DNA of 64,000 bases from Botryllus schlosseri (GCA_051294905.1 CM119371.1:22074001-22138000); one strand, 5' to 3'. Positions 1 through 59,591 are shown, counted from the first letter of the stretch. The notes: generated from the sequence alone by a model not told the origin. Numbers and translations are program-made.

Positions 1-468
1 TTACTGAGCCTCGTAAACGCTTTTCCGAATATCTGACATGTATAGTTTTCAACTCCGGTATGTGCATTCACATGTCTTTTTTCATGTCACTATGCCGGGT
101 AAACGCTTTTCGACAGACCTGCTACTGGTAATTTTAGACTCCAGTATGAGTATTTCCATGTGTTTTCAAGTGACCAAGCCGGCTAAATACTTTTCCGCAG
201 GTCTGACATGCATATTTTTTGACTCCGGTATGTATATGCCCATGTGTTTTCAAGTACCTGAGCTGACTTAACGCTTTCCCTCATATCTGACATGCATAGT
301 TTTTGACGCCAGTATGTGTATTTCCATGTCTTCTCAAGTCACCAAGCTGGGTAAACGCTTTCCCACAGATCTGACACTCATAGTTTTCAACACCAGCATG
401 CTTATGTCTGTGCCTTTCTAAGTCACTAATACCAGTGACTGCTTTTCCGCAGATCTGACATGTGTAGT
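1..468 (-). pseudogene. C2H2 ZNF fragment (about 5 fingers), near-identical copy of 12640-13107
   Basis: ORF 281..472 encodes CQICGK...HTGVKNY fingers. The sequence matches 12640-13107 except at about 2 positions and shares the same in-frame stop. It ends abruptly at 468. Confidence 0.85.
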
Positions 469-3224
469 GCAATAACGAAGCAGATCATGAATAAAAAGAT
501 CCAAGAATAACAAACATATGACTTCAACTTGAAAAGAAATTGATACTGATATGCGCAAATTGCTAATGACCAGAGAATATGCTAAAATGGATATCACTGG
601 TCATCACATATTTTGGTGTCAAGAAAGTTTCAATTGATTTAGCGTAATTGCATGTTGCTGAATCGAAAAATGAATTCCGAATTGGCTCAATTTTTTGAGA
701 TATTCTATATTTTATTAAAAAAAAACTGCTAAATATACCGAATTTTGACGAAGGTGAATTTTTTTTTCAACAACTTTGACGAATCTATATCTGTCTTCAA
801 GCATGTGTATACCGTATTCTTCTAGTTCTGAAGCGATATAGTTTAACACGCAATCGGTAACACAGATATCCTTGTAAATGGGAATCATGTTTCACGTGAA
901 GATCAAGCAAAAACTAGGCGATATTAGCAGTAAACAAACACAGCTGACGTCAAAGCACAAGCACTACTTTTTGTAACCCTCGAAGTACATTTAGTAAGGT
1001 GTCAAAAAAAAGAACCTTACACAGTTATTGAACTACGATATAGCTTTAAAATGATATATTGATGTCATGTGATAACTGTAGGGAGTACTCGACATTGTAG
1101 ATATGATTAACAATACAAAGAAACTGCATCTTATCAGAATATTGCTTATACTTTTATCCTACGATCGCCTGATTTACTGTATGATGCTGTACAGTTTGTA
1201 GAAAGCTGAGGAAATCACTCATAGCGGTAGAGATATAGAGAACAGAAAACAGAGAACAGAAAATATTGGGTATAGGCTGCAGCTCAATATCTTGTGCTCT
1301 CCAAAATGGAGTCTTTTCAATGTCTGCGTTCTGAAATAATGGGATGCTACAATAGCAAATAGACATAGTGGAGTAGCCTATCTGGTCCGCAACTTAAAAT
1401 GTTTGTGTGATAAAGTATAGCATTAGATCATCGCTGCTCATCACACTGTGATACAAAAATTTAAACATTCACATCCAATTGCTCTGAACAACAGACCAAG
1501 CGCAAATTACCATATTATATGTGTTTCTTACCATATTTATAAGTTTCCATACCACGGCAACATTCTACCATACCATATTTGATACTTTTCCCATATTTCC
1601 CAAGTTGTCTAACACTTTTCAAATAAATGCTATTTTTGATGCGTGGAAATTTCCGACGTTTATATTCCGATTATTTTGAATGAAATTATCCATTTAAACT
1701 GCCCAATGCACCAATTCCGTCGTCAATTTCTTAGTGTCGTATTATGTCGGTGATGCCATAGACTAACCATCGAAGAAGAAACGTAAATTATATACCGGTT
1801 TACTTTGAAATCTCAAGGAAAGACCATGACATGAAATAGACTGGAAACCCGCTGCTAGCAGTAATATTGCGATATCATCTACAAAATTAGATTAAACAAA
1901 AGTATTGTCTCATTAGAATATATCTTGGAACACAATAACACATCGCTGCAATCATTAGCGGTTTTGCGTCAGCGGATCAAATGTCAGATTCCTTCGCCAA
2001 TGTGTGGATTATATACTCAGTAGCTACATTAACCAACATTGGGCATCTTTTATCAGAGATAGGCATACTTATTGAAGTTACAATTCATGTTGGAGGCCTG
2101 CATAGCATAACGCTGCTGCAAGACAAAGCTACATATTTTGAATTACAATGGTGGTTTTGTAAAATTGTTGGTGTCTGATGATCATCCGGGCAAAGCGCAG
2201 GAAATGAGTTCTAAGCTCAACAAATTGATATTATATATTATTATAGATCGCTATCTACAATTGAATAGTATATTCATATTGAAATGAACCCGAATATTTC
2301 CGACTGACTATTCAATTGCATATTGAAGTTCTGTACCTCCAAGAAGCTCTTCAGATCGCTATCTCTAATTCATGTGACGCAGTATTTCACCTAGCAGTAT
2401 ACCTGACTATATACTTCAATTGGATATAGATAAAAAAAATACCTATGTATGCTGTTTTAGTCGTCATTGAGTTTCTTAGTCTCAAGATGGGGGTTAACGA
2501 GTTAATATTTCCTTTACACATAAGCCTTGAATAAATTTAGGTGAATGTGCAGATCATTTTTCTAGTGATCAGAGCACCAAATTGAGAAGTGGGATTGCGC
2601 AACATTTTGAAATCCACATTTAATACTTGCGACCATAAAGAGTCTGGGAACCCTTGCTATAACATGACAGCCGTCGACAAATGGAAAGGAGAATTATTGT
2701 CATGGTTCCGGCAAAATTGCGAAAGTATGGAAAAAAATTTCCATGCCATATTTTGAAATTTCCATACTACAACAGGAAAAATACTTGACATTCTCATCTA
2801 GAAACAGATAAGCGTAAAAACAATATGCACTGAAAATGGCTGCGGCGACGAAAAATTGACGTGTGAAAGAGTCTTAGTGACACAAAGATACAAGGCCAAC
2901 TGCATTTCTACAATCCAAGCCCACGAATCGTGCATCATGAAAGGTTATTCATAGATATATGCGCTGTGTAGTTGTACAGATTTGATCGTAATATTATATC
3001 ATGTTTATATGGTGGCAGAGTGAATGGACGGCTACTTCGAGTACCAGCATAATTTATTATATGGTATTTCTGCTCATATAACTGTATCATGTTCAAGATC
3101 ATAATTCTAACAAATTGACTTGTGTTTCGCTATTTCTTTGCCTATTTCAAGTAGTCCTACATTTTTGTATCAGCAGTAACATTTACCACCTGAATGTAGG
3201 GTCTTTAGCTTTTCAACAGAGGTG

Positions 3225-4180
3225 TGCGCATTTCCATGTCTTTTAAAGGTGACCAAACCGGGTAAAGGCTTTTTGAAAGATCTGATATGCACGGTTTATT
3301 GACTCCCGCATGTCAGGTATGTGTATTTCTATGTCTTTTCCAGTCACCAACCGTTTGAGAACGCTTTTCCACAGATCTGGCCTTCATGTTTTTTGACTCC
3401 AATGTGTATATTTCGATGTGTTTTCAAGTCGCTGATTCGCACAAACTATTTTCCACAAATTTGACACTCATTGTTTCCCGTATAGTGGCAGAGTGAATGG
3501 AGGACTCCGTTGGGTAACAGCATACTTTGATACGGAGTATTTCTGTTCATATTACTGTATCATGTTCAAGATCATCACTGCGAGGCGAATTAGACTTGTG
3601 TTTTTCTATTTCTTTGTTCATTTTGAAGTAGTCCTACATTGTTGTATCAGCAGTAACATTCAAGAAACAAATACAAATCGGTTCTTTAGCTGGATGTGTA
3701 TTATCGTGTTTTCCCAAGTAACTGAGCTGACAAAACGCTTTTCCACATATCTTACATTCATAGCTTTCAACTCCAGTATGCATATTTTCATGTTTTCAAA
3801 TCGCTGAGGCGCGCGAACAATTTCCCAGAGGCCTGACACTCATGGTTTTTGACTTAAGTATGTTAATGTCCATGTCTTTTCAAGCCGTGCAAACGCTTTT
3901 CTGCAGATCGGACATTCATAGTTTTTGATTCCAGTATGTGTATGCCCGTGTTTTTCATGATACCGAGACGAATGAATGATTTTCCGCAGGCCTCACATTC
4001 ACAATTTTAGACTCCAGTGTGTGCTGTTCGATGTGCTTCAAACGCCGCCGTTGTAGTGAAGGCTTTACCACAGATATGGAATTCATATCTTCTCTCTTCA
4101 ATGTGGGATTGCAGGTGGGTGTTCATTCCGCCATGGCGATGGACGCATTTCCCACAGATCCAACACATCTTTCTTGTCAT
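3225..4180 (-). pseudogene. C2H2 ZNF pseudogene (type C N-terminus, MTRKMCWICGK...HLQSH)
   Basis: Manual translation from the ATG at 4180 gives MTRKMCWICGKCVHRHGGMNTHLQSHIEER...HTGV* (stop near 4008). Decayed fingers follow at 3690-4000 and 3225-3475. Confidence 0.8.
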
Positions 4181-5149
4181 TCTTCTTCTAATCTACTCCT
4201 TCAAACATCAATCATTCTTTGTGCAATAGCAGATATCGTACCCTTGCATTGCATAGGCTATTACGCTAGTATGCTACTTGTTATATTATAACATCGGTCT
4301 GAAAATTAATGTGATCAAAAAATATAAATCCATATGTGACGAATACTTTGATTATGAACAAAATACAATAAATTCCAAAATCAGCAACATATGATATATT
4401 GATAGGCATTTCCTTGAATACATTTCTGTATCGTACTGCTCTGTAACCAGACACACTGATACGAAGTAACCGACACACATTCTCCAGAACAGGGTGACCT
4501 TGGTGGTATCTGGTGACTTTGAGAATATATCGTAGATGACCAAATTTTCAACCTTGTATTTGTTGGAAGTTGTCGATGCATAAGCTGATGAATACAATGG
4601 TCATTGTGGTTGTGATTGCGGTTGTGTCAGTTCTGATAGGTCAGTTTTCAGTCTCAGCTCGTTTAAATAACAAATGAAATAGAACTAATTCATAAAAAGT
4701 AGTGTGGTTACCATGAATCAAATTTCATTGTAGCCGTCTGTGTCACTTTTAAATCGAAACACGTACTTCGCAGGGTCACCGTAATAATCGGTATATTTAA
4801 ATATACTCGATACGTCAGCACAAGAAATAAAATTCGGACTGTTGGGTATTTAGTTGATAGTGGAATGGTGATAGTTGCAGAAGGTCTACTTTTAAACAGA
4901 AACATGGCACACAAGATAAATCAAATGTGGTGCACTTGGTAGTTAGCTTGGTTATCACAATACGAAAAAAATACCTGTGTTAGTAGTTACAGAAAGACCA
5001 TGTGAATCAAAGCAAACGTGCCAATGAATCATTCAAAACAATTATACTTTTTTCATGCAAGACTTAGACAGCCGTACAAGGCTATATATTCAGTTTCCCT
5101 GTCCAGCGGCTTATGAGCAATGAGCATCATGTGCCCATGGTATGCATAT

Positions 5150-5353
5150 GCACAGATATCACACTCATGGTTTTTCAAACCTGAGTGAGCGGTTCTATGT
5201 TCTATGTGCTTCCAATGCAGTCATTGCAGTGAAGGCTTTCCCACAGATATCACATTCATCTTTTCTCTCTTCGTTGTGGAATTGCAGGTGAGTTTCAATT
5301 TCGCCAGGACCATTGACGCATTTCCTACAGATCCAACAAGTCTTTTTAGGCAT
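5150..5353 (-). pseudogene. Truncated C2H2 ZNF 5' fragment (type C)
   Basis: MPKKTCWICRKCVNGPGEIETHLQFHNEERKDECDICGKAFTAMTALEAHRT*. Homology stops near 5150. Confidence 0.8.
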
Positions 5354-6539
5354 TCTTCCAGGTTACATGTAATACACTCCTTCAAGCATTATACATCAAC
5401 AGTTCTTTGCCCAATAACGAATATTGTCTTCTTGCATGACATAGTATATTGCATAGTATCGTACTTGTTATTTTAGTACATCAGTCTAAAATGCAATATC
5501 ATAACAGAAAAATTGATCAATGATGAATCCGTTTGACGATGAATAAAATACAATAAATTCCAGAACCATCAACATATGATATATTGATAGACGTCACTTT
5601 CAATGCACCCCTCACAAGTTATGAGCCTTAGTTGCCGAAAACAACTTGACTAAATATTTAAATGGAATGCATAAGATGACAGTATAATTGTACTATTGCC
5701 AGATATACCAAAGCTTTAACAGGTAGAGCGTCAACATGAAACAACGATACTATGTGAACATGTTATCATCGATTCTTGAAGCACAGCAAACTGTTTAATC
5801 TGCAAGTCTTAGCAGTGCGATCTCAGCATAAGAGGAGAGGAAAAAAACAAGAGAAGAAAAACCATAAAACGCTTGCAAAACGCCCAGTGGAATCATTCTG
5901 TGCCCGTCTAATGAAATTAAAATGGCAAATACGGTCAAGCATACCATTGAAACACCGAACTACAGGGATGAAATACAAATCGAAACACAAGACGATACCA
6001 TCACATATAAGAGCCACCGTGACATTAAAGGTCAAATCCCCTGCAATAACACCAACAGCAAATGACCTAAAATAAACTTATGCACAAACAGTTGAATACC
6101 ACATACTACATACCATGCTATAAACAGCAATCTAAATCGTCGACACACTGGCCTGCAAACAAATCAGCAAGGCACTGTTATGGGTAGAATAGGCCAAAGT
6201 CAGAGGGTTTGAGGGCACAACGAGGGCACAATACAAATACAGCAAAAATCATGATGATCAATTTCATTTGGGCCATTGGATTTTCCCTCGATGATAAGCT
6301 GTTGCCAATACTTGCCATCGCTAAAGCCGTTTCGGTTAGTGAGGAATAGTAATGTTGGGCACAGGAAAAAAGTTTATTTTGAAACAAAAACAACAATATG
6401 TTGAAACTGTAAACAATTTCAGCATTTCAAAATGCTTTTCTTAGCATTCTTCCGAAATCACAAATCAAGTCGTGGGCCGTAGAATATAACCTGGCGGGCC
6501 ACATTTTGGAGACCTGGTCTATTAAATGTACCCTTGCAA

Positions 6540-7160
6540 TTAAACGTTTTACCGCAGATCTTGCATGCAAAGTCTTTCACAGTTTGACTGCAGTGTGATT
6601 AATCATTATATGATGCTAACTTTGCCATTCTGACAACGGACTTCCCACAGATCTCTCAAGCGTATTTTTTTTTGGCTCCAATGGTCTTTCAGTAGGCCGA
6701 GAGGAGTAAACGCTTTGCCACAGTTCACACGGTCATGATTTTTGAAACCACTGTGTGTTATTAGATGAGTTTTCAATGAAGAGTTCGCAGTGAAAGCTAC
6801 ACTATATACCTCACATTTACAGTTTTCAACTCTGTATTCGTACTCGTACTTGTGTATTCGTATTACTTTTAATTGGCTAATCTGTGTAAACACTTTGCAA
6901 CAGATCCCACACTCAGTTTTTGAGTCCGGTGTTTACTAGAATATGATGCTCTATGTTTGTCTTTGAAGCGAAAGACATTCCACATATTCCACATTCATGG
7001 TTCTTGAAACCGGTGTGGATCATGAGATGTACCTTTGTAGCGAAGGACTTAACACACATCTCAGATTCACAGTTTTTCACTCCAGTGTATATTCTCATGT
7101 TGTTTCAAGTCACTCTTCGCAGTGAACACTTTCTCACAGATCAAACATTCATAATTTCTT
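6540..7160 (-). pseudogene. Decayed finger tail downstream of the 7163 stop
   Basis: ORFs 6913..7098 and 6606..6893 contain frameshifted fingers paralleling fingers 8-13 of the 7163-8335 protein. Confidence 0.75.
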
Positions 7161-7162
7161 AC

Positions 7163-8335
7163 TCAAGTATGTCTATTCATATGTCTCTTCAAGTGATGAA
7201 GCCGACTAAACGCTTTCCCGCAGGCCTCACATCCATAGTTCTTAACTTCAATGTGAATATCAAGGTGGGCAGCTAAAGATTGCTTCGTAAGACCGGACTT
7301 CCCGCAGATCTCACATGCGTAGTTTCTAGCTCTAAGATGTGTGTTCCAATGGTTTTTCAACATGTCGACAGAAGTAAACGCTTTGCCACAGATCATACAG
7401 TCATAATTTTTGAAATCACTGTGGGTTAAAAAATGTGTTTTCAATGAAGACTTCACAGTAAATGCTTTACCACACACTTCACATTTATAGTTACTGACTC
7501 CGTCATGTGTATTCGTGTGAGTTTTCAATTGGCCAATCTCTGTAAACACTTTGCCACAGATCCCGCACTCATAGTTTTTTACTCCAGTGTGAACTCGCAT
7601 GTGACGCTCTAAATTCGTCCTTGAAGTTAACGACTTACCACATATTTCACATTCATGATTCTTGAAACCAGTGTGGATCATCATGTGTGTCTTTAATGAA
7701 TGCTTCTCAGTTAAGGTTTTACCACAGATCTCACAATCATGACTTTTGCTTCCTGTATGTGTATTCTGATGTTTTTTCAAGTCACTCATCCTCATAAAAG
7801 TCTTACCACATATCCAACATTCATAGTTTTTTATTCCAGTATGTATATACATATGCTGTTTCAAGTTGGTGATCCGACTGAAGGCTGTACCACAGATCTC
7901 ACATTCGCAACTTCTGATACTGTGAATATGAATGTATTTTGCCAAATATTGCTTTGTAGCAAAAGACTTTCCACACATGCCACATTCATAGTTTTTCACT
8001 GCAGTGTGTGTATTCGCATGTCTCGTCAATGCTGCATTGTCAGAGAATGATTTTGCACAGATATCACATTTGTGGTTTCTGACTCCAATGTGAATATGAA
8101 TGTGTCTTGCTAAGTGCGGCTTAGTAGCAAATGACTTCCCACAGGTCTCACATTCGTGGAATTCGACACTGGTATGTCTGTAAACATGTCTTTTCAAGCC
8201 AACAATTGAAGTGAATGCTTTTCCACAGATTTCACATTCGGCTTTTTTCTCATCAATGTGGAATCGCAGGTGGCTTTTCATTCCACCATAACGATCAAAG
8301 ATTCGTCCACAGATCGAACATTGGATTTTTCTCAT
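7163..8335 (-). CDS. Multi-finger C2H2 zinc-finger protein (type D), 14 finger units, about 390 aa
   Basis: Tandem CxxC-x12-HxxxH repeats. The likely start is the ATG at 8335 (MRKIQCSIC), in the GAAGA-ATG context seen in most paralogues, not the GTG at 8374. The stop falls where the HTG linker Gly would be. Confidence 0.85.
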   Translation of the reverse strand: MRKIQCSICGRIFDRYGGMKSHLRFHIDEKKAECEICGKAFTSIVGLKRHVYRHTSVEFHECETCGKSFATKPHLARHIHIHIGVRNHKCDICAKSFSDNAALTRHANTHTAVKNYECGMCGKSFATKQYLAKYIHIHSIRSCECEICGTAFSRITNLKQHMYIHTGIKNYECWICGKTFMRMSDLKKHQNTHTGSKSHDCEICGKTLTEKHSLKTHMMIHTGFKNHECEICGKSLTSRTNLERHMRVHTGVKNYECGICGKVFTEIGQLKTHTNTHDGVSNYKCEVCGKAFTVKSSLKTHFLTHSDFKNYDCMICGKAFTSVDMLKNHWNTHLRARNYACEICGKSGLTKQSLAAHLDIHIEVKNYGCEACGKAFSRLHHLKRHMNRHT

Positions 8336-8899
8336 TCTTCCAGCATATGTGGAAATTAATTCTTCAAGCCTCACACCTCAATGGTTCTTTTTTCGTCGAT
8401 TTCCAACACTTGTATGGACAATGCCGTGCTACTGTGCAGTATTTGAATTGTTATCATAGAATAGCAATCTGCAAAGCAATGTGAGAACAAATAAAATGTT
8501 GACCGATCAGTTCGAAAAAAAAAAATCATCATTCCAAAATAATAAAAAGGATAATCAATATCATTGTCGTTGAACATATTTCAGCATCGTAATGATCAGT
8601 AACCAGATAATTAGGATATTGACCGCTACGGATGTTCAACACATATTTTGAACATCGTGATTCCCATGTCTCATATTTGCCTAGGACAGGCGTTGGGAAC
8701 ATGCATATCATGGTATGTAATCACATGTCATATCTAGTAATTGTACATTTTGACTCAAGTCACTGGATTTTCTGAGGTGACTCGAATTATTGAAGTAGCC
8801 GACAAGGCATTGTAATTTGCAAAATTATTGAAGTACTAATTGAGTCAGCATTCATTCATAACACCGGTCAACACAATTTTTGTTGGCCTTTATCGACAC

Positions 8900-11214: not shown

Positions 11215-11590
11215 ACCAGGTCGACAGGATGAACGCTTTTCCCCAGATCTGACACTCATAGTCTTTGAATCCAGTATGTATATTTCCATATGTTTTCAGG
11301 TCACCAAGCAGCACAAACAATTTTCCCCAGATCTGACAGCCAAGGTTCTTGACTCCAATGTGAGCAGTATGTGTATCCACACGTCTTTTTGAGTGACCGA
11401 TCAGATTATACTCTTTGTCAATGACCCAGCATTCATGATTTTTTAAGCCAGTGTGGGATAGCATATGTTTTTGAAACAAAGGCTTTTCCACAGTTCCCAC
11501 ATTCGGTATTTCTATCATCAATGTGGAATCGCAGGTGAGTTTTCAATTCGTCATGACGATGGAAGCTCTTTTCACACATCGAGCAGATCA
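11215..11590 (-). pseudogene. Truncated C2H2 ZNF pseudogene (type A)
   Basis: ORF 11183..11521 (KHMLSHTGLKNHECWVIDKEYNLIGHSKRRVDTHTAHIGVKN) parallels the N-terminus of 30432-32126, but is frameshifted and truncated. Confidence 0.8.
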
Positions 11591-12619
11591 TCTTCGTCAG
11601 TTTTCAGGATTATCTATAAATCACGTTATTTCTTCGAGTATCACACATCAACCGCTCTCTGCTTGAAAACAAGTATTTAACGATAGCTTGAAATTCATGA
11701 GCTATTACGTAATGGTAGAATTTTTATATTATAGCAACCCTGTCTGAAATACAGAAGAAATTAACAAGAACGATTGTATGATCTATTATTATCAGTTCAG
11801 TAGAAGTTTTAGGCATTGTAATGATCGGCAACCAGACAATCCCGATGAGTAGTTCCTAATAGATATTTCGCACTTATTTTCGAGATCACAATTACATTTC
11901 AGATTCACTTTCGGTTATTTCTTGCGGATAGATCATTTAGGACGTTCATGTTTCAACAGGATCGTACCATAGATTTCAGCACCTAGACTTGTTAATTTAC
12001 TAAGACAATTCATCAAATGCAAAATGTTCAACGATGCTTGATGATTCGAAAAGTTCCATGAATGGGCATGTACTAAAAATAAGCTGTAAGTAAAATGTAA
12101 AAACAACATGAAAACACTCACATTCTGCTACACAAACAGATAAGTTAATATGGTGGCAGAGTAAATGAACGACTTTTTCGAGAAACAACATATGTCAATG
12201 GGTATTTCAGTCATTTCAGGGCTAATTCTAATTTAACAATTTATCACATATAAAATGTTTTATGATGCTTGACAAAACAAACACCTCTTCGATTATACAA
12301 TCGAATTCGAAGTAACCAAGTCTAAGTTATGGCGAATGTAAATGCCGCTTTTCCTCAATTCACTTGTTCGTAACCTTTAATAGCCAGGATTACCCTTACA
12401 ATATTGTGAAAGCCATCGAGGGCGGGGGGAGTCATTACACACTCATAACACTCATCCTTTACAGTAAAGAGTGGTTTCGCCATCTTTTGGAAATTTGATG
12501 CAAATAGAACATTTGGGACGTTCAGATTTCAACTTGACAGTCTAATAGAATTCAGCTCCATGACATTGAACCGTAAAGTTACTCTTTGACATTCATTCGC
12601 TTGTGATTCCGATAAAGTT

Positions 12620-14738
12620 TGTTCTCATGCGCTTTCAAGTTACTGAGCCTCGTAAACGCTTTTCCGAATATCTGACATGTATAGTTTTCAACTCCGGTAT
12701 GTGCATTCACATGTCTTTTTTCATGTCACTATGCCGGGTAAACGCTTTTCGACAGACCTGCTACTGGTAATTTTAGACTCCAGTATGAGTATTTCCATGT
12801 GTTTTCAAGTGACCAAGCCGGCTAAATACTTTTCCGCAGGTCTGACATGCATATTTTTTGACTCCGGTATGTATATGCCCATGTGTTTTCAAGTACCTGA
12901 GCTGACTTAAAGCTTTCCCTCATATCTGACATGCATAGTTTTTGACGCCAGTATGTGTATTTCCATGTCTTCTCAAGTCACCAAGCTGGGTAAACGCTTT
13001 CGCACAGATCTGACACTCATAGTTTTCAACACCAGCATGCTTATGTCTGTGCCTTTCTAAGTCACTAATACCAGTGACTGCTTTTCCGCAGATCTGACAT
13101 GTGTAGTTTATGGCTCCAATATGTGTATTTATGTGTCTTTTCAAGTGACCAAGCTGGGTAAAAGCTTTTCCGCAGATCTCACATGCCATGTTTCTCACTC
13201 CAATATGTGTATTTCCACGTCTTTTCCAGCTACCAAGATGACTAAAAGCTTTTCCGCAGATCTGACAATCATAGTTTCTGACTCTGGTATGTGTATTACC
13301 ATGTACTTTCAAGTTACTGAGCCATTTAAACTCTTTTCCGCAGATCTGACATACATAGTTTATGACTCCGGTATGCGTATTTCCATGTGTTTTCATGTCA
13401 TCAAGCCGGGTAAACGCTCTCCCGCAAATCTGACATTCATAGTCTTTGACTCCGGTATGTGTATTCTCATGTGTTTTCAAGTTACCAGGCTGACTAAACG
13501 CTTTTCCGCATATCTCGCACTCATAGTTTTTGACTCCAGTATGTATATATCCGTGTGTTTTCAACTCCCCAAGCTGCACAAATGATTTAGCACAGATTTG
13601 ACAATTATAGTTTTTCACTCCAGTATGTGCATTCCAATGTCTTTTCAAGTCACCAAGCTGGGCAAATGCTTTTCCACAGATCTGACATACATATTGTTTG
13701 ACTCCAACATGTGTATGTCCATGTCTTTTCAAGTTGCCAGCATGGGTAAATGCTTTTCCGCAGATCTGACATTCATAGTTTTTGAGTCCAGTATGTGCAT
13801 GACCACGTGTTTTCAAGTTACCGAGATGATTGAATGATTTTCCACAAATCTGACATACATAGTTTTGGACTCCAGCATGTGTGTGACCATGTCTTTTCAA
13901 GCTATCAGGATGATTGAATGATTTTCCACAGATCTGGCACTCATAGTTTTTGATTCCTGTATGTGTATGAAAATGTATTTTCAAGGTACTTAATGACTGA
14001 ATGATTTTCCACAGATCTGACACTCGTGGATTTTGACTCCAGTATGTGCATGACCATGTGCTTTTAAATTACCGAGATGACTGAACCATTTTCCACATAT
14101 CTGACACTCATAGTTTTTGACTCCCATATGTGTATTTCCATGTCTGTTCAAGTTACCAAGCTGGGTGAACGGTTTATCACATATCCGACACTTATATACT
14201 TGGATTCGTCTATGTGCATTCTCGTGTGTTTTCAAGTCACTTGGATGATTAAAAGTTTTCGCACAAATCTCACATTTATAGTTTTTGACTCCGGTATGTG
14301 TATTCATATGTGTTTTCAAGTCACCAACTAGACTAAACGTTTTTCCACAGATCTCACATTCATGGTTCCTCGGTGTAGTGTCTTTTTGTGTGTTTTTGAG
14401 TCATTGAATCGCATAAACGATATTCCACAGATCTGGCGCTCATGGTCTTTGAGTCCAGTGTGAGTTATAGTGTGTTTCGCTAAATATGTCATCCTAGCGA
14501 AGGACATCCCACACATCTCACATTTATAATATTTTCCTTCAGTGCATGTGTCCCTGTTTCTATTCAAGTTGCCGCTTTTCAATCCAGTTGATGATAGTTT
14601 ATGTTCTTTCAGTGTATATAATGCAGCAAAAGCTTTCCCGCAGATATCACATTCGGTACTTTTATCTTTAGGGTGAAATCGCAGGTGAGTTTTCATTTCG
14701 TCATGATTGCGGAAGCTCTTTCCACTGATCGAGCACAT
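12620..14738 (-). pseudogene. Long C2H2 ZNF pseudogene (type B), more than 20 finger units
   Basis: Three consecutive ORFs (14328..14780, 13990..14319, 12920..14023) are joined by frameshifts, with a stop at 12920 and further fingers to about 12620. An 8-nt deletion removes the MTE start present in the paralogue at 37632. Confidence 0.85.
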
Positions 14739-15046
14739 CTTCTCTTCTGGATTATCTGAAACTATTTCTTCAAGAATCACACATCAACAGTTCTCTGCTT
14801 GAAATCGAACATTCAACGATAGCTTGGAATGAGCTATAGCATTTAAATTCTTGTATTGTAGCAACCCAGTCTGTAACACAGAAAATAACTTAGCAATATC
14901 GGATCAGTTTCAAAACGTACATAGTTTAGCAGATGCAAGAAAATCAAACACACAGCAAATGTCTAGCAATATAGTTAAATTTTTAGACCTCGTAGAGATC
15001 GATAAGCAGACAATTCCCGCAGTCGTACATTAGACAAGTCATTCCT

Positions 15047-16349: not shown

Positions 16350-16477
16350 GTTCCCGACCACTGCGACAAATTCTTTCCCACAGGTCCGAAATTCTGCTTT
16401 TCTCTGTTTTATGTGGAATCGAAGTCGAATTTTAATTCCGCCATTACTATTGAAGCTTTTCAACAAATTGAATACAT
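16350..16477 (-). pseudogene. Relic of ZNF N-terminal finger pair (type D-like)
   Basis: Translates with a stop/frameshift to MYSIC..FNSNGGIKIRLRFHIKQRKAEFRTCGKEFVAVVG, compared with CSICGRIFDRYGGMKSHLRFHIDEKKAECEICGKAFTSIVG in the 8335 gene. Confidence 0.7.
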
Positions 16478-19949: not shown

Positions 19950-20203
19950 TCTTCCAGGTTACTTCTTCAAGCATTACACATCAACAGTTCTTTGCCCAAT
20001 CACGAATATTCTACCGTTGCATTATATAAGCTATTGCATAGTATGTCCAGTCTAAAAAACAATATCATCAGAGAAAACATTGATCAATGCCGAATAAGTT
20101 TGATGATGAATAAAATACAATAAATTCCAGAACCACCAACATATCAAATATTGATAGGCGTTTCCTCGAATAGACGAAGACATTTCGGTATTGTAATGAT
20201 CTG

Positions 20204-25360: not shown

Positions 25361-25394
25361 AAATTACAGCTACGCCTAAAACATTTAAGTAACA

Positions 25395-29617: not shown

Positions 29618-29622
29618 AAGTC

Positions 29623-34410: not shown

Positions 34411-34433
34411 CTCTAAGAGAATGTAGCATAGCT

Positions 34434-40734: not shown

Positions 40735-40862
40735 GTTCCCGACCACTGCGATAAATTCTTTCCCGAAGGTCCGAAATTCCGCTTTTCTCTGTTCTATGTG
40801 GAATCAAAGTCGAATTTTAATTCCGCCATTACTATTGAAGCTTTTTAACAAATTAAATACAT
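40735..40862 (-). pseudogene. Relic of ZNF N-terminal finger pair
   Basis: Paralogue of 16350-16477. Confidence 0.65.
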
Positions 40863-45746: not shown

Positions 45747-46049
45747 TTTCGTTCTTCTGGATTATCTGTAAATTATTTCATCAATCATCACACGTCAACA
45801 CTTCTCAGAGAGAAAACGAATATTCAAGAATAGCTTGGAATGAGCTATTGCATAGTATTCAAATTCATGTATTGTAGCAACCCAGTCTGTAACACAAAAA
45901 ATAAATTAGCAATTTCGGATCAGTTTCAAAAAGTACTGAATCCAACCGATGTTAGACAATCAAACATACAGAAAATATCAACCAGTTTCGTTTAATTTTT
46001 AGGCCTTGTATTGATCGATAAGCAGGCAATCCAGACAGTGACCTATTAA

Positions 46050-47093
46050 CCCTTTTAAAATCGGATTCCGTATACGGAATCGGTCAAGCGGTCATCGGGC
46101 AATATCTTCATTCTTGTACAGAATGTACACGTCCTAGCGGCTTCATTTTGGTTTGTAGGGAAAGCTAGCAATCTTCTGATTCATATGATACCAGGTTTAT
46201 ATGTATAAGTCGAATATTTTTTTTAATACCAACGATTTTACACGAGATGGTCGGCCGAAAATGGTTGAGCCTATGACGCTACTGAATACGTCAGCCAACT
46301 TTATGTGTTAATTTCTCCATCGATATACGGCTATTTCACAGTCTGTGTACGTAGAGCATATGTCCCATGGTAATATATGCAAAGACGTTGATCCACTGAT
46401 ATATTTGAAACCAAAATTACAAATATACGTCGCAGACTGTATGAATACTATAGATTTTACCACAGGAGGACGTTGAAGCAAGTTGTTTGGCCGGCTGGCA
46501 TGTTGTTGCACAGTAAACTTGGCATGTAAGTAGCTTGTATACAAAGAGTCACAATAGGTCATATTGCTTTGTTTCACAATTACTATACTGCTTGATAGCT
46601 TAGCCATCAGCAGTTGACAAATGCAAAAGACACAGCGTCTAGGCATTGTGTAATTACTATTACCAGCCGTGTTCACTCAGCCGTGATAAGCCGGCATCGC
46701 CGTCCGCCTACCGAAATTCTGAACAGTCAGGTCAGCATTTCCTACGTAAAAACGAGATGAATAATGCTAGAGCATCGAGTGATGTTTTGTTGAAAAGAGA
46801 ATATCATTATCTCTGAAGTAGGTTATGTTCGAGAACGCAGAACGAGGCTACCAGAGTTCACACCCGCTCATAAAAACAAAACTGCTGATCAAAACAGACA
46901 CTTTTCGCCCTTCAGCAGACCATGGCACTATGATACCTCTTGCGGATAGTTGTTTCATAGGCGTAAAACGCTAGAGGGCAATCTTCTCGTTACTATGATA
47001 CCAAACACGCCTCGATTAAGCGTATATATTTGACTTTATCGCAATTATGGTGAACCGATTCAAATTCGGGGAAAAGTCCCGATTTTGAAAGGG
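46050..47093. mobile_element. piggyBac-like MITE (1044 bp)
   Basis: TTAA TSD on both sides and 15-bp TIR CCCTTT(T/C)AAAATCGG. Absent in paralogues near 15030 and 37920. Confidence 0.88.
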
Positions 47094-48585: not shown

Positions 48586-49209
48586 CTGGTATCCACCACT
48601 TTTCCGCTTGGCGCTTAGCACTACCAGGATGGCATGGAGAGGTGTTGCAAGACTTGGAAGGTCGTACAAGGCTGTATATGTATCTTCCCTGTCCAGTGGC
48701 ATATGCGCCTCATGCACTTATGGTATGCATATGCACAGATCGTGTGATGTATATCATGAGTTGGTTCATACGTCGCAAAAACAAACTATGACATTTCCCT
48801 TAACATGAATTTTGACAGATTAACAATTTTCGATAAAAAAGACATATTGTTTTTTACCATCATTCAACTTCATATCGCATTCGACATGTTAGATTTGTCC
48901 GATGAATACCCCTATATAACTTCAAGCAACCATATTTACCCTATAACAGAAAATCAATTATCTTGGACTGATAAGCAATTATCAGCAGCAATAGTTGGCA
49001 TAAATTCTAAGTTGCCGAGAATGGATATTCAAGTCCCTAATTCCCTGGATACACAACTGTTTGGACTCTTAGAGACATGTTTCAGCTACCGCAGGAATAA
49101 CGATACCGGTATGAGAATTTTTCAAAAACCTGCGGCAATATAGATGAATGAGGATGAGGATCCATATTTCATTAACAAAAGAGCCATATATGCCTCGTCA
49201 GTCATAGGT

Positions 49210-49320
49210 TTTCGGCGATCCCACTGGTCCAAAATTCTGCTTTTCTCTATTCTATGTGAAATCAAAGTTGAGTTTTAACCCCGCCATTACTATTGAAGCT
49301 TTTTAACAAATTGAATACTT
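49210..49320 (-). pseudogene. Relic of ZNF N-terminal finger pair
   Basis: Third paralogue of 16350-16477. Confidence 0.6.
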
Positions 49321-49615
49321 CTTAATAGTTTTTCTTTTAGCTTCTATGTAACTTACTTCTTTAGGCATGACACACCGACAATTCCTAAGCCAATAACAAA
49401 TATCATTTTCTTGTAAAGAACAGGCTATTGCGTGGCATGCAAATTGCAATATTATAGCAGTGTTGTCTGAATCACAAGCAGAAATGAAATATAACAATGA
49501 AGGATTCGTTTGAAATAGAACAGAAAGTAACTAATACCAGAAAAACCGGGATCACAAAGTAATAGTTTTCTAATTCACTGAGAATAAGTTTGTCTAATTG
49601 ATCTGATGACCAATT

Positions 49616-50545
49616 TCATACTTCAATATGGACATAACCATGACTTTTCAGTGAACCAGGGAATGTGAAAGATTTCCCACAAATGTCACATTCATACTTT
49701 CTGATTCCTGTGTGAATATGAACGTGTTTGGCTAAATATCCCTTTCGAGCAAAGGCCTTTCCACAAACCTCGCATTCATAGTTTCTTACACCCAAATGAG
49801 TTTTCTTATGGGTATTCAAGTAACCCATCTTGAGAAACGCTTTTCCACAAATCTGGCAAGCATCGCTTTTGACTCCAGTGTGAGCATGCATGTGTCCAGC
49901 TAAACTATCTTTTCTAGTGAAAGACATCCCACACATCTCACAATCATAGTTTTTTACTTTGGTATGTGTATCAGCATGTCTTCGTAAGTTACCAATCTGG
50001 GTGAAGGCTTTGCCACAGATCTCACATGCATACTCTCTGACTCCAATATGGACGCTCACATGACTTTTCAATGTTTTGCTGTCGGCAAACGCTTTTGCAC
50101 AGATCTCACATTCATAGTTTTTTATTCCAGCGTGAATATCCATATGTCTTGTTAAATGTTCATTTCGAGCGAAGAACTTTCCACACATCTCACATTCATA
50201 GCTTTTGAATCCAGAATGTGTTTTCCGATGAATATTCAAGTTACCGATTTGAGAAAATTTTTCGCCGCAGATATCACATTCATGGTTTTTCACTCCAGCA
50301 TGTGTATCCTTGTGCATTTTCAAATCACTGATCCCAGTGAACATTTTTCCACAGATAACGCATTCATGGTTTTTCAAACCAGTGTGAGCTTTTCTATGTG
50401 CTTTCATTGCAGACATTGCAGTGAAGACTTTCCCACAGATATCACATTCATCTTTTCGCTCTTCAATGTGGGATTGCAAGTGACTTTTCATTGGACCATG
50501 ACCAATGACGCATTTCCCACAGATCCAACAATTCATTCTAGACAT
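49616..50545 (-). CDS. C2H2 zinc-finger protein (type C), 309 aa, 11 canonical fingers
   Basis: All Cys/His ligands are intact and the ORF has a clean start and stop. It is the best-preserved member. Confidence 0.9.
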   Translation of the reverse strand: MSRMNCWICGKCVIGHGPMKSHLQSHIEERKDECDICGKVFTAMSAMKAHRKAHTGLKNHECVICGKMFTGISDLKMHKDTHAGVKNHECDICGEKFSQIGNLNIHRKTHSGFKSYECEMCGKFFARNEHLTRHMDIHAGIKNYECEICAKAFADSKTLKSHVSVHIGVREYACEICGKAFTQIGNLRRHADTHTKVKNYDCEMCGMSFTRKDSLAGHMHAHTGVKSDACQICGKAFLKMGYLNTHKKTHLGVRNYECEVCGKAFARKGYLAKHVHIHTGIRKYECDICGKSFTFPGSLKSHGYVHIEV

Positions 50546-50905
50546 TCTTCCAGGCTACACTTCTTCAAGCATTACACATCAACAGTTCTTTGCCCAACAA
50601 CGAATCTTGTACCCTTGCATTATATAGGCTATTGCATAGTATGGTACTCGTTATATTAGTTCAACAGTCTAAAAAGCAATATCATCAAAGACAAAATTAA
50701 TCAATGACGAATCAGTTTGATGATGAACAAAATACAGAACCTCCAAACTATTATATATTGATAGGCGTTTCCTCGAATAGATGAATGCATTTCCATATTG
50801 CAATGATCTGTAACCGGATACATTGTTAATAAGTATGACTAATCAATACACATTTTTGCATTTGTGGGCGATGAAAAAATTTTCGGAACAGGATGACCTT
50901 GGAAG

Positions 50906-55219: not shown

Positions 55220-56694
55220 GCATCCCGCATTCATAGTTTTTGAACCCAGTATGTGTATTTCCATGTCTTTTCAAGTTACCAAGGTGATCAAAACTCTTTC
55301 CGCAAATCTGACATGCATAGTTTTTTACTCCAAGATGTGTATTCGAATGCATTTTTAGGCTATGAAGCTGGGAAAACACTTTTCCGCAGATCTGACATGC
55401 ATAGTTTTTGATTCCAATATGTGTATATCCATGTGATTTCAAGTGACCAAGCTGGCTAAACGCTTTTCCGCAGATGTGACATGCATATTGTTTGACTCCG
55501 GTATGTATATGTCCATGTGTTTTCAAGGCACAAAGCTGGGTAAACGCTTTACCACAGATCAGACATTCATAGTTTCTGACTCCAGTATGGGTTTTCCCGT
55601 GTTCTTTCAAGTTACTGAGAAAACTAAACGCTTTTCCACATATATCACATTCATAGTTTTTGACTGCAGCATGTATATTTCCGTGTGTTTTCAAATCGCC
55701 GAGCCGCGCAAACAATTTCTGACAGATCTGACACTCATAATTTTTTACTCCAGTATGTGTATTTCCATGTGTTTACAAGTGACCAAGCTGGCTAAACGCT
55801 TTTCCGCAGATCTGACATATATATTGTTTGACTCCGGTATGTATATGTCCATGTGTCTTCAAGTGACCAAGCATGGCAAAGGCTTTTCCACAGATCTGAC
55901 ACTCATAGTTTTTGAATCCAGTGTGTGTCTTTCCGTGTTTTTGCATGACATCATGCCGGTTAAATGCTTTTCCGCAGATCTGACATGCATAGTTTTTGAC
56001 TCCAGTATGTGTTTGTGTATGTATATTTCCGTGTGTTTTTAAACTGTCGAGGCGAGCAAACAATTTACCACAGATCCGACACTCATAGTTTTTGACTCCG
56101 GTATGTGTAGTTCCATGTCTTTTCAAGTAACCAAGCTGGCTATAGGTTTCTCCGCAGATCTGACATACATATTGTTCGTCTCTGGTATGTGTATGTCCAT
56201 GCGTTTTCAAGTCACCAAGACGGATTAACGCTTTTCCACAGATCTGACACTCATAGTTTGTGACTCCTGTATGTGTATTTCCATCTTCTTTCAAGTGAGC
56301 AAGCAGGGTAAACGCTCTGGTGCAGTTCTGACACTCATAGTTTCTGACTCCAGTATGTATATTTCCATGTGTGTTTCAGGTCGTCGAGCCGCACGTACGA
56401 TGTTCCACAGATCTGACAGTCATTGTTTTTTACTCCAATGTGAGCAGTATGTGTATCCGCACGTCTTTTGGAGTGAACGACAAGATTATCCCCTTTGCTA
56501 ATGACTTTGCATTCATTATTTTTCAAACCAGTGTGTGATAATATATGTTTTTTTAGTGTAGAGATTGCAGCAAAGGCTTTTCCACATATCTCACATTCGG
56601 TATTTTTATTTTTGAGGTGGAATCGCAGATGAGTTTTCAATCCGTCATGACGATGGAAGCTCTTTTCACAGATCGAGCACATCTTCTTTGACAT
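55220..56694 (-). pseudogene. Type-A ZNF pseudogene, paralogue of 30432-32126
   Basis: ORFs 56335..56694, 55773..56294 and 55119..55715. There is a frameshift near 56370, a stop at 55773, one deleted finger and 3' truncation. Confidence 0.88.
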
Positions 56695-59591
56695 TCTTAT
56701 GGATTATCTGTTATTTACTTTACTTCTTCAAGCGTCACATTTCAACTGCTCTCTGCTTGAAAATGAGTAATCAATGATCGCTTGAAATGAGCTAGTATAT
56801 AGTATTCGAATTCTTATATTAGTGCAACTTAGTCTGAAATACAGAAGGAATTAGCAACAATGAGGCAGTTTGATAAATAAAAATATAAACAAATCCTATG
56901 ATAACTAGATGTGCAACACGTGATTCACGGTTGAATACGCCGAGATGCATACTGCTTAGCCGTCTAACAGCAGCGCAATTGGTAGTCCTATAGTCAGGGC
57001 CGTAACTGCCGCACCCCAAACCCCCCAATTGAGGGAGGCCGAGATCGAAGGGGGCCCAAAATTATTTCGTGAATTAGAATAAATTATAGAGTATTTTTTG
57101 AAAATTTATGCAACTTTTTAAAAAAAATTTCGGTTCGCCACATATCTTGATTATTGGGTACTCTTCCCCAAGAAAAAATACCCAAGATTTATAGAAATGG
57201 GCATATCAGCGTTGGCCATGATCGCACCACAACGCACCAAGACATATAAAGTTTTAGGCCATGTAACACGTGACTCCAAGAAGTATGTCAGAACGATTAG
57301 CAGCGAGAAAGGCCTGGCCGTAAAGGACTGCTTTTATGCTGACCAAAAACCTTGAAATACCAAAACTTCGTTATATATACAAAATACATATAGGCGCCTA
57401 AATGTTCTTGTCTTGGCAATCTGAACCTCACAAGACAAATACCATCCCGCAGGAAAGAAAATTATACCTTATTTACCGATTTTATCATGAATTATCGAAA
57501 TATTCGCGCCCCGCGCTGTCTCACTAAAAATACAACTTTAATTTCGTCGCAAAAGCGAACAACGTGATGCGGGGTCAGGTTATCATACTATGGGAGCCCG
57601 GGGTCTTGACGAAGTGCTGTTACGTTCCTGCCAACGGGTATACCCCCAGAGATGCTTAATTACTATTGAGGGGGCCCATACCTTTTCAAACACACCTCAC
57701 TCAGCTCTACCGGTAAATCAGAATACGTGAACAGAGAAAGGATGAAAATTGATAGTAATACATGCAATTCTCGACCATATTGACCGATTCAGTCATGAAA
57801 CTAAAGAAATTTCTCTTGCTTCACGCGTTACGGCGAGTAAACCTTATTCACTCAACGAACACCCAATGTAGCAGATAAGTAGCGGTAAAACAGTATACAA
57901 TTTTGAAATCTCGCCAGGGCAATAAAACTACTCCGAAATAGCCATTATGATTGTTTGGGTCCGTTTCATAGCCGCAGTATTAGTGCGGCCCCGACCGTAC
58001 TCTGAAATCCTAAACTTGGCCCTCACAACGAAAAAGTTTGGGAACCACTGGTATAGAGGCAATATCGTTACTTGTATTATGATTAGCATTCGCATCTGTA
58101 ATAGGCCTCGTGCGCAAGACGTCGCGTCGCCGGCCTCGCAGGCTTTGACTGCTCTGTCCTATCATTTAGAGACAATGCCGTTGATTGCATCATGATTAGC
58201 GATGGTTATGTCATGATTGTTCGACAGTGACATCGCAAAACAGAACAACATCGCGTACTAAAACACAGCTATTCATGTATTGTGAATGCAGGGTGGGTAC
58301 TATACATGGGTACAGGCTTTTTCCCAGAATTTGCATGCCATTTTAAGGGTGCGTATGATACATGGGGGCGTACTATAGTTGTAAAATTCGGTTGTTATTT
58401 CTATATTGCAGCTCATATTTAAGTTATTCTGGAATGGCAGTTATGTATATCATAGGAGAAAATGGATTTTTTGCAAGGGAATTTATTCCGAAACCCTAAC
58501 AAAACATCTCTAAACAGCAGTATAATTGTATCAGTAGACTATTGGCAATTAAAATGAGTTTACACAGTAGACATTTCATCTTTGTCTGCCATTGTTTATT
58601 GAAGTCCTCAAGTTTAAGCAATAATGAAGCTAAACTGCTTCGCGATTTCTTTAATTAAAAAATAGAGGGAAGGTTATCAAACATTTTTCAAATTTGCAGG
58701 TTTCGCGGATCTCTTGAAATTGCTTCGAGGATCTCCGGTTGAAAACCATTGGTTTACGACCACGACACGAATCTGAGTGGCATTGCCATCTCGCGATGGA
58801 AAGAAAAGGCACAGGCATCAATCCATCAAAGATGCATATGCATGACGATAACTTGATATTGTTACCGCCTACTTCACAAATCAAACATGGATCCTCTTCA
58901 GGTCGTCTTTGTATAGATGCTGAATTGAGAGATACTACCAGCCAAAGGCTGGCAGACCACAATATCAGATTATAAGGAGCTTCCAACTGTAATTCTATTG
59001 TATGCATATTTTATTTTTCTTCAAAATATTCTCCGCACTTCCCCCGTATAGTCCGTAGTCTGCCCTACGTTAATCTACAAGCATTCGGGGAGCCCTTGAT
59101 TTTCAGTGAGTCACAAAACAAAAGTCTACCACATGTATTGTAATCTGTAGGACTACCAGTAAAGCTACTCAGGCATAAGGCTATACTTGTACATTGTACA
59201 AACTACCCATTTAGTTTGTTGATGGTCAACTAACTATAATTCTATGATTTAGCAGTAATCTGAACGAGACGGGATCTCATGAAGGAGAGGAAATGTTGAC
59301 CAGCTGCATGAAATGGATGGTAGAAACAAACACATATTCACAAAGACTACAACTTGAAACGAAATTGAAACTGATATGTGCACAGGGGCGTATCCAACCG
59401 AAAAACAGGGGGGCATCTTTAGAAAAGAGGGTGTTTTAAAAGGAGAGGATGTTCCTAGTTCTAACCGATTGATCAGGTTAGATGTACGCACAAATGCAGA
59501 TATTACAACGCTCAGATAATCTTACTCGTGTTTGTGACTTCTTCATTCGCATATACAAAACTACGTACAATTAAATACAACAAACCATTAA

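Follow-up and report, generated by a model that had tools for sequence, protein, structure and literature searches.

A tandem birth-and-death cluster of finger-only C2H2 zinc-finger genes with conserved, probably unpaired splice acceptors in Botryllus schlosseri

The window analysed here is a 64-kb stretch of the Botryllus schlosseri genome (GCA_051294905.1 CM119371.1:22074001-22138000), which holds 16 zinc-finger (ZNF) loci arranged head-to-tail on the minus strand. Searching with a finger profile derived from the window itself recovers 13 finger arrays, every one on this strand, and three decayed 5′ remnants (49071-49466, 40589-40867 and 16204-16482) make up the remainder. Five loci are open, six are broken, three are 5′-end remnants and two are 3′-end fragments. 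When the 5′ regions of 12 loci are placed on a tree, type A groups with support of 86/83, type B with 100/98 and type C with 100/99, and type D is a single gene. These figures agree with the first-pass annotation, which had described about 16 same-strand loci of four N-terminal types, about five of them open and the rest dead; its picture of birth-and-death turnover also stands, with identity among duplicates running from about 75% up to 99.6%.

The open type A gene (30432..32264, acceptor 32264, ATG 32126) has 18 canonical fingers in a 564-aa frame (30432-32126), the last ~30 aa of which are encoded by inserted DNA. It is collinear at 82-85% with a second type A gene (55236..56833, acceptor 56833, ATG 56694), which is broken by a frameshift in finger 4 and a later stop and is ended by a hairpin insertion. 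The type A gene at 11226..11743 is also broken, having lost the homologous start codon, acquired frameshifts and been truncated. In type B, the open gene (43983..45886, acceptor 45886, ATG 45746) has 14 canonical fingers in a 587-aa frame (43983-45746), including three near-identical finger duplicates of recent origin. The truncated type B gene at 36759..37760 is 94.5% identical to 13894-15629 across 1757 nt and retains a sixth frame (36820-37632, 270 aa, six canonical fingers), shortened by a frameshift. The broken type B gene at 12620..14870 has 25 finger units, but its homologous start codon is deleted and frameshifts and stops interrupt it. A B-like array at 28826..29616 is a 3′ fragment with 92% identity to the end and tail of the open type B gene. 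The other 3′ fragment (1..468) extends past the window edge, is 99.6% identical to 12640-13107 and shares its stops; it is either a very recent duplicate or an assembly duplication.

The open type C gene (49616..50668, acceptor 50668, ATG 50545) has 11 canonical fingers in 309 aa (49616-50545). Two other type C genes are broken, one past finger 2 (5149..5485) and one by stops and frameshifts (3216..4298). A chimeric open gene (18430..20051, acceptor 20051, ATG 19949) joins the 5′ end of a type C gene to 3′ fingers and a tail that are B-like, with 15 canonical in-frame fingers in 482 aa (18501-19949). The type D gene (6517..8468, acceptor 8468, ATG 8335) has an open frame of 390 aa (7163-8335) with 13 canonical fingers, after which a stop is followed by seven decayed finger units. 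Among the 5′ remnants, that at 49071..49466 retains its acceptor, while those at 40589..40867 and 16204..16482 have lost it.

Four parts make up the duplicated unit: a conserved upstream stretch of about 160 nt, the splice acceptor, a 5′ UTR of 102-143 nt that does not code, and the array of fingers. New copies arise by tandem and segmental duplication, and most are killed by a frameshift, a stop or the insertion of a transposable element (TE). Chimeric genes and near-identical neighbouring fingers show that fingers are gained, lost and swapped, for which unequal crossing-over would be the simplest mechanism.

At E<1e-3 the window contains 171 finger units, of which 121 are canonical. Each of the five open frames has 11-18 canonical fingers with an 84-bp period and 28-residue spacing. 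Pfam finds zinc-finger families in all five and no KRAB, ZAD, SCAN, BTB or SET domain in any of them, while none of the 258 minus-strand spacer frames of at least 40 aa within the window contains a Pfam family; an Rfam scan gives no matches. The absence of a known effector, as first proposed, is thus upheld for the open frames and the spacers, and the stops between acceptor and ATG described below extend it to all 12 loci with a 5′ end. Only 2-5 residues precede the first Cys. FOG and SALL proteins carry a NuRD-binding motif, and a likeness of the N-termini to this motif was considered and dropped because too few residues lie ahead of the first Cys. The proteins are approximately fingers from start to stop, the exceptions being finger 1 of the B types, which lacks its second Cys, finger 3 of the A and B types, which is degenerate, and the tail of the 564-aa protein.

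Variation at helix positions -1, 2, 3 and 6 amounts to 3.03, 2.47, 3.17 and 2.72 bits, and 89 distinct contact fingerprints occur among 116 fingers. The first-pass description of variable contacts on a uniform scaffold is correct for these positions, but the scaffold is only partly uniform and the two residues past the first His vary about equally (2.98 and 2.66 bits). The linker is TGVKN-like, keeping T in 76, G in 85 and K/R in 98 of the 116 fingers, while Pro is absent. The TGEKP linker, whose presence is reported to predict DNA binding (PMC11327367), is found in none of the 116, and Gly occupies position 2 in 55 of them, features that would suit fingers directed at RNA or proteins instead of DNA. 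This alternative is nevertheless very unlikely, given the regular five-residue linkers that retain T, G and K/R and the fact that the base-contacting positions -1 and 3 change fastest. The fingers are likely to read DNA.

Transposons sit between and inside the ZNF genes without carrying them. Of the non-ZNF DNA, about 31% either lies between terminal inverted repeats (TIRs) or recurs in inverted orientation inside the window. A hATm-like DNA transposon of 3691 bp (22343..26033, minus strand) has TIRs beginning TAGGGT, an 8-bp target duplication and TIR arms of ~180 nt that are 92% complementary; its transposase is split by a frameshift. At both of its ends six of the seven terminal letters of TAGGGTG fit, hATm elements being described as having TAGGGTG-type termini and 8-9 bp target duplications (PMC6004678). 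It is nested inside a 5218-bp TIR element (21427-26644) with an 8-bp duplication of its own. A 930-bp TIR element (33481..34410) with an 8-bp target duplication is, from its sequence, a putative hAT-type MITE. A non-autonomous element of 1044 bp (46050..47093), which we take to be piggyBac-type, has CCC..GGG ends and a TTAA target duplication and lies ~160 nt upstream of a ZNF acceptor. This element is missing from 21 reads of the single-cell run X9, indicating an insertion polymorphism. The corresponding X9 joint (46045-47094; 21 reads, 10 starts) was considered as a 5′ intron and rejected, as no shift of the cut yields splice ends, and the joint instead marks the empty site left where the TTAA-flanked element is absent.

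The cluster had been called embedded in DNA transposons, which is accurate as far as interspersion goes but not in the sense of enclosure, since none of seven single elements checked encloses a ZNF exon. That the ZNF exons are cargo of DNA transposons is largely excluded. TIR elements are common between the genes and four inverted-repeat pairs do span a ZNF exon, but three of these four are opposite-facing copies of small repeats that recur several times in the window, all four have flanking matches of only 2-4 bp, and the duplications take in long collinear flanks.

All 12 loci with a retained 5′ end have a splice acceptor 102-143 nt ahead of the ATG, and its AG is retained in every one while the UTR varies in length. 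These acceptors account for 12 of the 20 T-rich acceptor-type sites on the minus strand of the 64 kb. Between acceptor and ATG there is at least one in-frame stop in each of the 12 loci, in a UTR whose phase is not conserved, so that an upstream exon cannot contribute a domain there. The idea that splicing might use another acceptor, located after the last stop but ahead of the ATG, was rejected: the AG dinucleotides in this interval are purine-flanked and not shared between types. A strong donor consensus occurs within 400 nt upstream at only one of the 12 loci, no convincing shared exon is present in the B-type upstream block, and no conserved upstream donor was found among the paralogs, though one may lie at a distance. 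Since no shared upstream exon was found, spliced-leader (SL) trans-splicing at these acceptors is likely. Unpaired acceptors undergo trans-splicing in Ciona, where the process involves about half of the genes and outrons are most often close to 100 nt long (PMC1488885, PMC4691747). No spliced or leader-bearing read at an acceptor occurs among the 15 of 34 joints and 24 of 783 loose ends listed, at low depth.

A less likely alternative is conventional cis-splicing, in which the acceptor would join a non-coding 5′ exon farther upstream; the loci would then be separate genes or the alternative last exons of a single long gene. The acceptor resembles an ordinary 3′ splice site and every locus is on one strand; moreover, the X9 reads cross the empty TE site ~160 nt upstream of one acceptor, so that RNA starts farther upstream there. 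Against this, the paralogs share no conserved donor-bearing exon, the B-type spacers are decayed repeats back to the previous ZNF remnant, and a matching joint is absent among the joints listed in 43001-63000. One variant would place a single shared 5′ exon possibly beyond the right end of the window. Under the favoured trans-splicing reading, the loci resemble Ciona SL trans-spliced genes and intercistron-less operons (PMC1488885, PMC2760879, PMC4691747) in the apparently unpaired acceptor and short 5′ UTR. The acceptor of the 49071..49466 remnant follows the stop of the open gene before it by 150 nt, and neither AATAAA nor ATTAAA occurs in the 700 nt past that stop. By its sequence this junction, a stop and 150 nt lacking a poly(A) signal ahead of the next acceptor, may be operon-like and is a further point of likeness to Ciona. 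In contrast to Ciona, trans-splicing here is a likely candidate mechanism, and most copies are not operon-like today, since the other neighbours that allow comparison lie between about 0.8 kb and several kb from each other.

Expression is low and probably restricted by stage or cell type. X9 has one-direction reads at low depth over three ZNF loci, including the open genes 49616..50668 and 43983..45886, while two bulk RNA runs, of which ~6% and ~13% were scanned, give zero depth on both of these genes.

Contact residues change much faster than the scaffold. Codon maximum likelihood (ML) on the open-gene fingers gives dN/dS of 0.22 for the core, 0.44 for the linker, 0.74 for other scaffold and 1.31 for contact codons (likelihood-ratio test, p=0.02), with ~2.1 at position -1 and ~1.5 at position 3; the 1-468 duplicate is excluded and nine broken linkers are masked. 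Over trees and models the contact value spans 1.04-1.62 (p 3e-5 to 0.83) and the scaffold 0.19-0.75, which bears out the expected excess of contact over scaffold codons (1.0-1.6 versus 0.2-0.75). Net positive selection at contact codons is suggestive only: with one synonymous rate for all site classes p is ~0.02 (contact 1.31-1.35), but giving the contact class a separate rate brings p to 0.44-0.83 (1.04-1.17). For all 118 fingers the contact value is 1.13 (p=0.23), and for 12 collinear finger pairs of two type A genes it is 0.97 (CI 0.33-1.95). It reaches 1.62 with a scaffold-only tree, a choice biased upwards; on this tree the rate is 1.74-fold helix-wide, as expected from helix shuffling by conversion. 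Pairwise dN/dS on scaffold-matched finger pairs (contact 1.65-2.15; nine broken-linker fingers and the 1-468 duplicate excluded) was set aside, because scaffold matching deflates dS. X1 contigs over the 309-aa gene differ at four synonymous and three replacement sites, one of the latter at position 6; these differences are too few to weigh and are ambiguous between allele and paralog. The possibility that fingers 1-2 form a strongly conserved hidden effector was dropped, as the constraint on finger 2 is not significant (contact 0.61, core 0.03, n=6) and finger 1 is under no strong constraint (contact 0.8, n=11, dead copies counted).

These values bear on two rival accounts. In the first, the cluster is engaged in a dedicated TE-silencing arms race, with positive selection and recruitment of heterochromatin by a route other than a classical effector. 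The contact values obtained with a shared synonymous rate and with the scaffold-only tree are in its favour, as are the active, polymorphic TEs of the region, the precedent of fish FiNZ-ZNFs and the predicted TE binding in octopus, weevil and sea urchin (PMC10547256). Yet the test ceases to be significant once the contact rate is freed, both the scaffold-only tree and the scaffold-matched pairs err upwards, and adjacency to TEs is no evidence of targeting, so that we regard this account as possible but unlikely. The second, mostly neutral churn of an 84-bp coding minisatellite that would expand and recombine by itself in repeat-rich DNA, with a few copies keeping the fold by purifying selection while contacts drift and most products do little, seems a little less probable still. 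It would accommodate the 11 of 16 loci that are broken or fragmentary, contact dN/dS indistinguishable from 1 in conservative tests, the zero bulk RNA depth and the helix-wide 1.74-fold rate. It is harder to reconcile with five long open frames within an AT-rich repeat, core dN/dS of ~0.2 and ~2.1 at position -1, an acceptor AG kept in 12 of 12 loci despite varying UTR length, and the one-direction X9 reads.

The cluster appears to be lineage-specific, as first proposed. Among the matches listed, one full protein has 31-44% identity to its best database relatives, and the N-terminal profile query gives at most 53%; searches with the N-terminal alignment are swamped by long generic ZNFs and may miss members in sister species. 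An exact look-up of seven ZNF frames in a protein collection finds none, and only two of 379 fetched finger proteins have at least 20% xG[VILF][KR]N linkers. In the literature searched (mostly non-subscription, main texts only) no description of such a tunicate ZNF family was found, and the linker term 'TGVKN' leads to unrelated papers only.

To call the cluster an undescribed system, as in the first-pass annotation, is nonetheless too strong. The literature already contains TE-linked zinc-finger expansions of independent origin as well as TE binders that lack an effector. Wells et al. 2023 (PMC10547256) report that animal ZNF expansions track TEs independently of accessory domains, that dozens of such families are uncharacterized, and that octopus, weevil and sea urchin ZNFs are predicted to bind TEs. 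Those tandem C2H2 expansions are likewise clustered and species-restricted, with rapidly expanding and decaying poly-finger genes in TE-rich DNA and fast-changing contact residues; the Botryllus cluster is set apart from them by the lack of any accessory domain, the TGVKN-type linker and the conserved, apparently unpaired acceptor. The words 'tunicate' and 'Ciona' are absent from the main text of that paper, whose species tables may include tunicates. Cyprinid FiNZ-ZNFs likewise expanded independently and lack KRAB, and positive selection is reported for some of their clades, but they have a conserved N-terminal domain in place of the 2-5 residues here, and their repression of TEs is demonstrated by knock-down, whereas a like role of the present genes would be a prediction (PMC10547256). 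Human ZNF146/OZF also consists of fingers with no other identifiable domain and binds a TE, LINE-1, but it is a single, highly conserved gene (PMC8896011). Tetrapod KRAB clusters share tandem birth-and-death and diversified contact residues, but here there is no KRAB domain or exon, TGEKP linkers are missing and the finger exon is closed to upstream coding exons by in-frame stops. In KRAB genes, as here, the fingers all lie in one large exon behind a splice acceptor.

The reading that we favour, with moderate confidence, is that these finger-only C2H2 genes form a lineage-specific cluster evolving by birth and death. Each consists of a single coding exon, likely SL-capped, and the products are predicted to bind long DNA sites, with repeat-binding members likely among them. 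Purifying selection keeps the fold while positions -1, 2, 3 and 6 change at or above the neutral rate, and new specificities would be kept when their targets are useful, most plausibly young repeats. Lacking an effector domain, they would work by occupying their sites or by finger-mediated recruitment of partners, the latter most plausibly through the atypical, slower-changing N-terminal fingers 1-2. By analogy with the known expansions, a role in recognising jumping genes is plausible. A more far-reaching and quite doubtful version sees a tunicate repeat-surveillance repertoire built from exon-sized SL-capped cassettes that yield new specificities fast, with fingers 1-2 as a cofactor module bringing heterochromatin to young transposons. 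In such a repertoire the host SL would cap unpaired acceptors, so that a duplicated finger exon with its acceptor works without a 5′ exon; the exon could even be fed by read-through from the upstream copy.

What is new here is the shared acceptor and the in-frame stops in all 12 loci with a 5′ end. As it stands, the cluster is a further example of a pattern known across animals. Its in-frame stops allow the effector-less state to be read with unusual clarity from the DNA by itself. How non-KRAB ZNF expansions act and whether TEs are their targets is a question raised in PMC10547256, for which the cluster provides a compact test case from an invertebrate. If leader trans-splicing is true, it would explain how single finger exons are so readily duplicated as working genes.

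All of the C2H2 zinc-finger (ZNF) loci in the window lie on one strand. Six-frame translation with a window-derived finger profile recovers 13 finger arrays within positions 1-56680, 13/13 on the minus strand, and three loci reduced to a decayed 5′ end, also minus (49071-49466, 40589-40867 and 16204-16482), raise the total to 16. Five loci keep long open frames, of 309 aa (type C, 49616-50668), 587 aa (type B, 43983-45886), 564 aa (type A, 30432-32264), 482 aa (18430-20051) and 390 aa (type D, 6517-8468), while the rest comprise six broken loci, three remnants and two 3′ fragments. Canonical units account for 121 of the 171 fingers, and the 116 whose 28-residue unit is free of stops carry 89 distinct fingerprints at helix positions -1/2/3/6, the contact residues. 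N-terminal types A, B and C are recovered on a tree of 12 5′ regions; type D is a single gene. Pfam matches in the five open frames are to zinc-finger families, with none to an effector domain. The first-pass annotation, with about 16 same-strand loci, about five of them open and the rest dead, four N-terminal types and effector-less proteins, thus describes the cluster correctly.

A feature to be added to that description is a splice acceptor. At all 12 loci with the 5′ end kept, a T-rich tract and a YAG followed by AC or AT lie 102-143 nt 5′ of the ATG or of the site homologous to it. Over the whole window, the minus strand has 20 such acceptor-like sites, 12 of them at the ZNF loci, against 0.022 expected per 70-nt zone, a count that speaks for conservation and not for independence, the 12 acceptors sharing one ancestor. 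Between acceptor and ATG there is at least one in-frame stop at 12/12 loci, in variable phase, and the last one lies 3-14 codons 5′ of the ATG in the five open genes. Because of these stops, an exon spliced at the acceptors cannot add an N-terminal domain. The annotation had named a known effector domain spliced on to the fingers as one outcome that would count against its reading; the stops after the acceptor bar such an upstream coding exon at all 12 loci. No Pfam family is matched by any of the 258 minus-strand spacer frames of at least 40 aa.

Similarity across the family stops about 160 nt 5′ of the acceptor. One of the 12 loci has a strong donor consensus within 400 nt upstream, and one weak GT is shared in an upstream block of the B-type genes. 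Ciona trans-splices its unpaired acceptors, gives the leader to about half of its genes and has outron lengths that peak close to 100 nt (PMC1488885, PMC4691747), and its operon junctions mostly have no poly(A) signal (PMC2760879). The stop of the 309-aa gene is separated by 150 nt from the following acceptor, that of a dead copy (49466-49616), with AATAAA and ATTAAA absent over 700 nt, and with its short gap and missing poly(A) signal this junction resembles the Ciona type. Since unpaired acceptors are trans-spliced in Ciona and the cluster has one operon-like junction, spliced-leader trans-splicing at the ZNF acceptors is the reading we prefer. The read joints and loose ends listed for 43001-63000 include no splice joint or leader-bearing end at a ZNF acceptor.

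Four of the 24 listed sequencing runs were aligned to that stretch, at 94% likeness. Depth is zero over bins 43668-45668 and 49004-50337 in both bulk runs, X11 (about 6% read) and X15 (about 13%). In the single-cell run X9 (about 3% read), whose reads possibly come from close paralogs, depth is 0.27-1.0 at 43668-45668, 4.4 at 45669-46335, 1.2-1.4 at 49004-50337 and 1.7 at 55674-56340. These reads keep a single direction throughout the ZNF bins. Their lengths point to a 3′ droplet library, where read 2 would be sense, and the direction would then be that of the genes. Contigs of run X1, whose RNA origin is a guess, span parts of both open genes in the aligned stretch. Other X1 contigs, with sequence absent from the stretch, switch between finger scaffolds, pointing to additional members of the family elsewhere. 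The top raw-read RNA depth of the aligned stretch, in all three read runs, is at 52900-53810. Because of the many differences in its reads, this is probably a repeat with transcripts derived from other copies, and it includes a tandem duplication of 149 bp (53515-53818).

For 73 fingers of the open genes, a codon model on the finger tree gives dN/dS of 0.22 for the core, 0.44 for the linkers, 0.74 for the other scaffold and 1.31 for the contact residues. Purifying selection acts on the finger fold and not on the contact residues. Whether the contact value differs significantly from 1 depends on the tree and the model; the trees have a weak base of 84 nt per finger, with recombination. With a shared synonymous rate, 1.31 differs from 1 at p=0.02; a free contact rate gives 1.17 (p=0.44), and all 118 fingers give 1.13 (p=0.23). 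On a scaffold-only tree, a shared rate gives 1.62 (p=3e-5), and a free helix rate, 1.74-fold in that fit, gives 1.04 (p=0.83). By position, dN/dS is about 2.1 at -1, 1.5 at 3, 1.3 at 6 and 0.95 at 2, and for 12 collinear finger pairs of two type A genes the contact value is 0.97 (CI 0.33-1.95). Of the contrast that the annotation proposed to check, the excess of contact (1.04-1.62) over scaffold holds, while net positive selection at the contact residues is suggestive only.

Duplicate copies, long flanks included, range from about 75% to 99.6% identity. Positions 13894-15629 and 36763-38503 are 94.5% identical, and 1-468 and 12640-13107 are dead finger tracts with identical stops and 99.6% identity, a duplication that is either very recent or an artefact of the assembly. 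The 482-aa gene is chimeric, type C at its 5′ end and type B at its 3′ end and tail; the 564-aa type A gene has a last finger that shares 89% identity with finger 5 of the type C gene; and the 587-aa gene has three adjacent fingers at 96-98% identity. These three features suggest that unequal crossing-over in the 84-bp repeat adds and swaps fingers.

Of the non-ZNF DNA, about 31% lies between terminal inverted repeats (TIRs) or has an inverted counterpart within the window. A hATm-like transposon (22343-26033, 3691 bp) with a perfect 8-bp target duplication is nested in a larger TIR element (21427-26644, 5218 bp) with its own perfect 8-bp duplication. Its transposase is split by a frameshift and has no Pfam match. 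Since P0121 is an unbroken 775-aa version with 100% identity to the C-terminal transposase frame, the family is young. Other TIR elements with 8-bp target duplications lie at 63212-63943 (732 bp) and 33481-34410 (930 bp). The one strong X9 read joint (46045-47094) was considered as a splice and rejected, being the empty site of a TTAA-flanked non-autonomous element of 1044 bp (46050-47093) just upstream of a ZNF acceptor; the element is absent from 21 X9 reads, and the insertion is therefore polymorphic beside that acceptor. A dead type A gene is cut short by a 136-bp hairpin element (55087-55222) where one of its fingers begins; in the open paralog, the end of this finger is interrupted. No ZNF exon lies inside a single transposon (TE) in the seven elements checked. 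The TEs break up the cluster rather than carrying its genes, and their presence is uninformative on finger targets.

Upstream of all three B-type genes is a decayed antisense SINE head (47102-47221, 37922-38046, 15037-15156), which we take to be tRNA-like from a B-box-like motif and whose sequence is abundant in RNA reads originating from other copies. The upstream DNA of these genes also has a block in common (48592-49069, 38043-38499, 15189-15643), with no Pfam match, which by a motif resembles a decayed GIY-YIG (Penelope-type) fragment. A palindrome of about 650 bp (29636-30284), composed of units of about 93-96 bp rich in TTAGGG, separates the 564-aa gene's end from a ZNF 3′ fragment.

The linker is distinctive. 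TGEKP occurs in none of the 116 fingers, TGVKN being the most frequent form (21), and Asn takes the Pro position in 78. The residues T (76/116), G (85/116) and K/R (98/116), to which PMC11327367 assigns capping and backbone-contact roles, are mostly kept; the same paper describes TGEKP itself as predictive of DNA binding. Since T, G and K/R are mostly kept and TGEKP is absent, the fingers, to judge from sequence, are likely to bind DNA, although binding may be weaker per finger. Only two of 379 fetched finger proteins have at least 20% of this linker type. The closest relatives among the matches listed are 31-44% identical, so that the family looks private to the lineage within the searches made.

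The cluster behaves like other animal poly-ZNF expansions, even though its genes are not KRAB, ZAD, SCAN, BTB or FiNZ genes. C2H2 gene numbers vary widely across tunicates, from 72 to 310 (table of PMC8122590, columns assigned from the text). No published account of this family was found in a search of main texts of mostly open-access papers. The cluster, proposed at first as a candidate for an undescribed system, is real but ordinary in kind: Wells et al. (2023; PMC10547256) have already put forward TE targeting as common to ZNF expansions in general, whatever their accessory domains, and ZNF146/OZF is a finger-only TE binder (PMC8896011). The cluster has two local twists, its private linker and the closure of the finger exon, which lies behind an acceptor that is probably unpaired.
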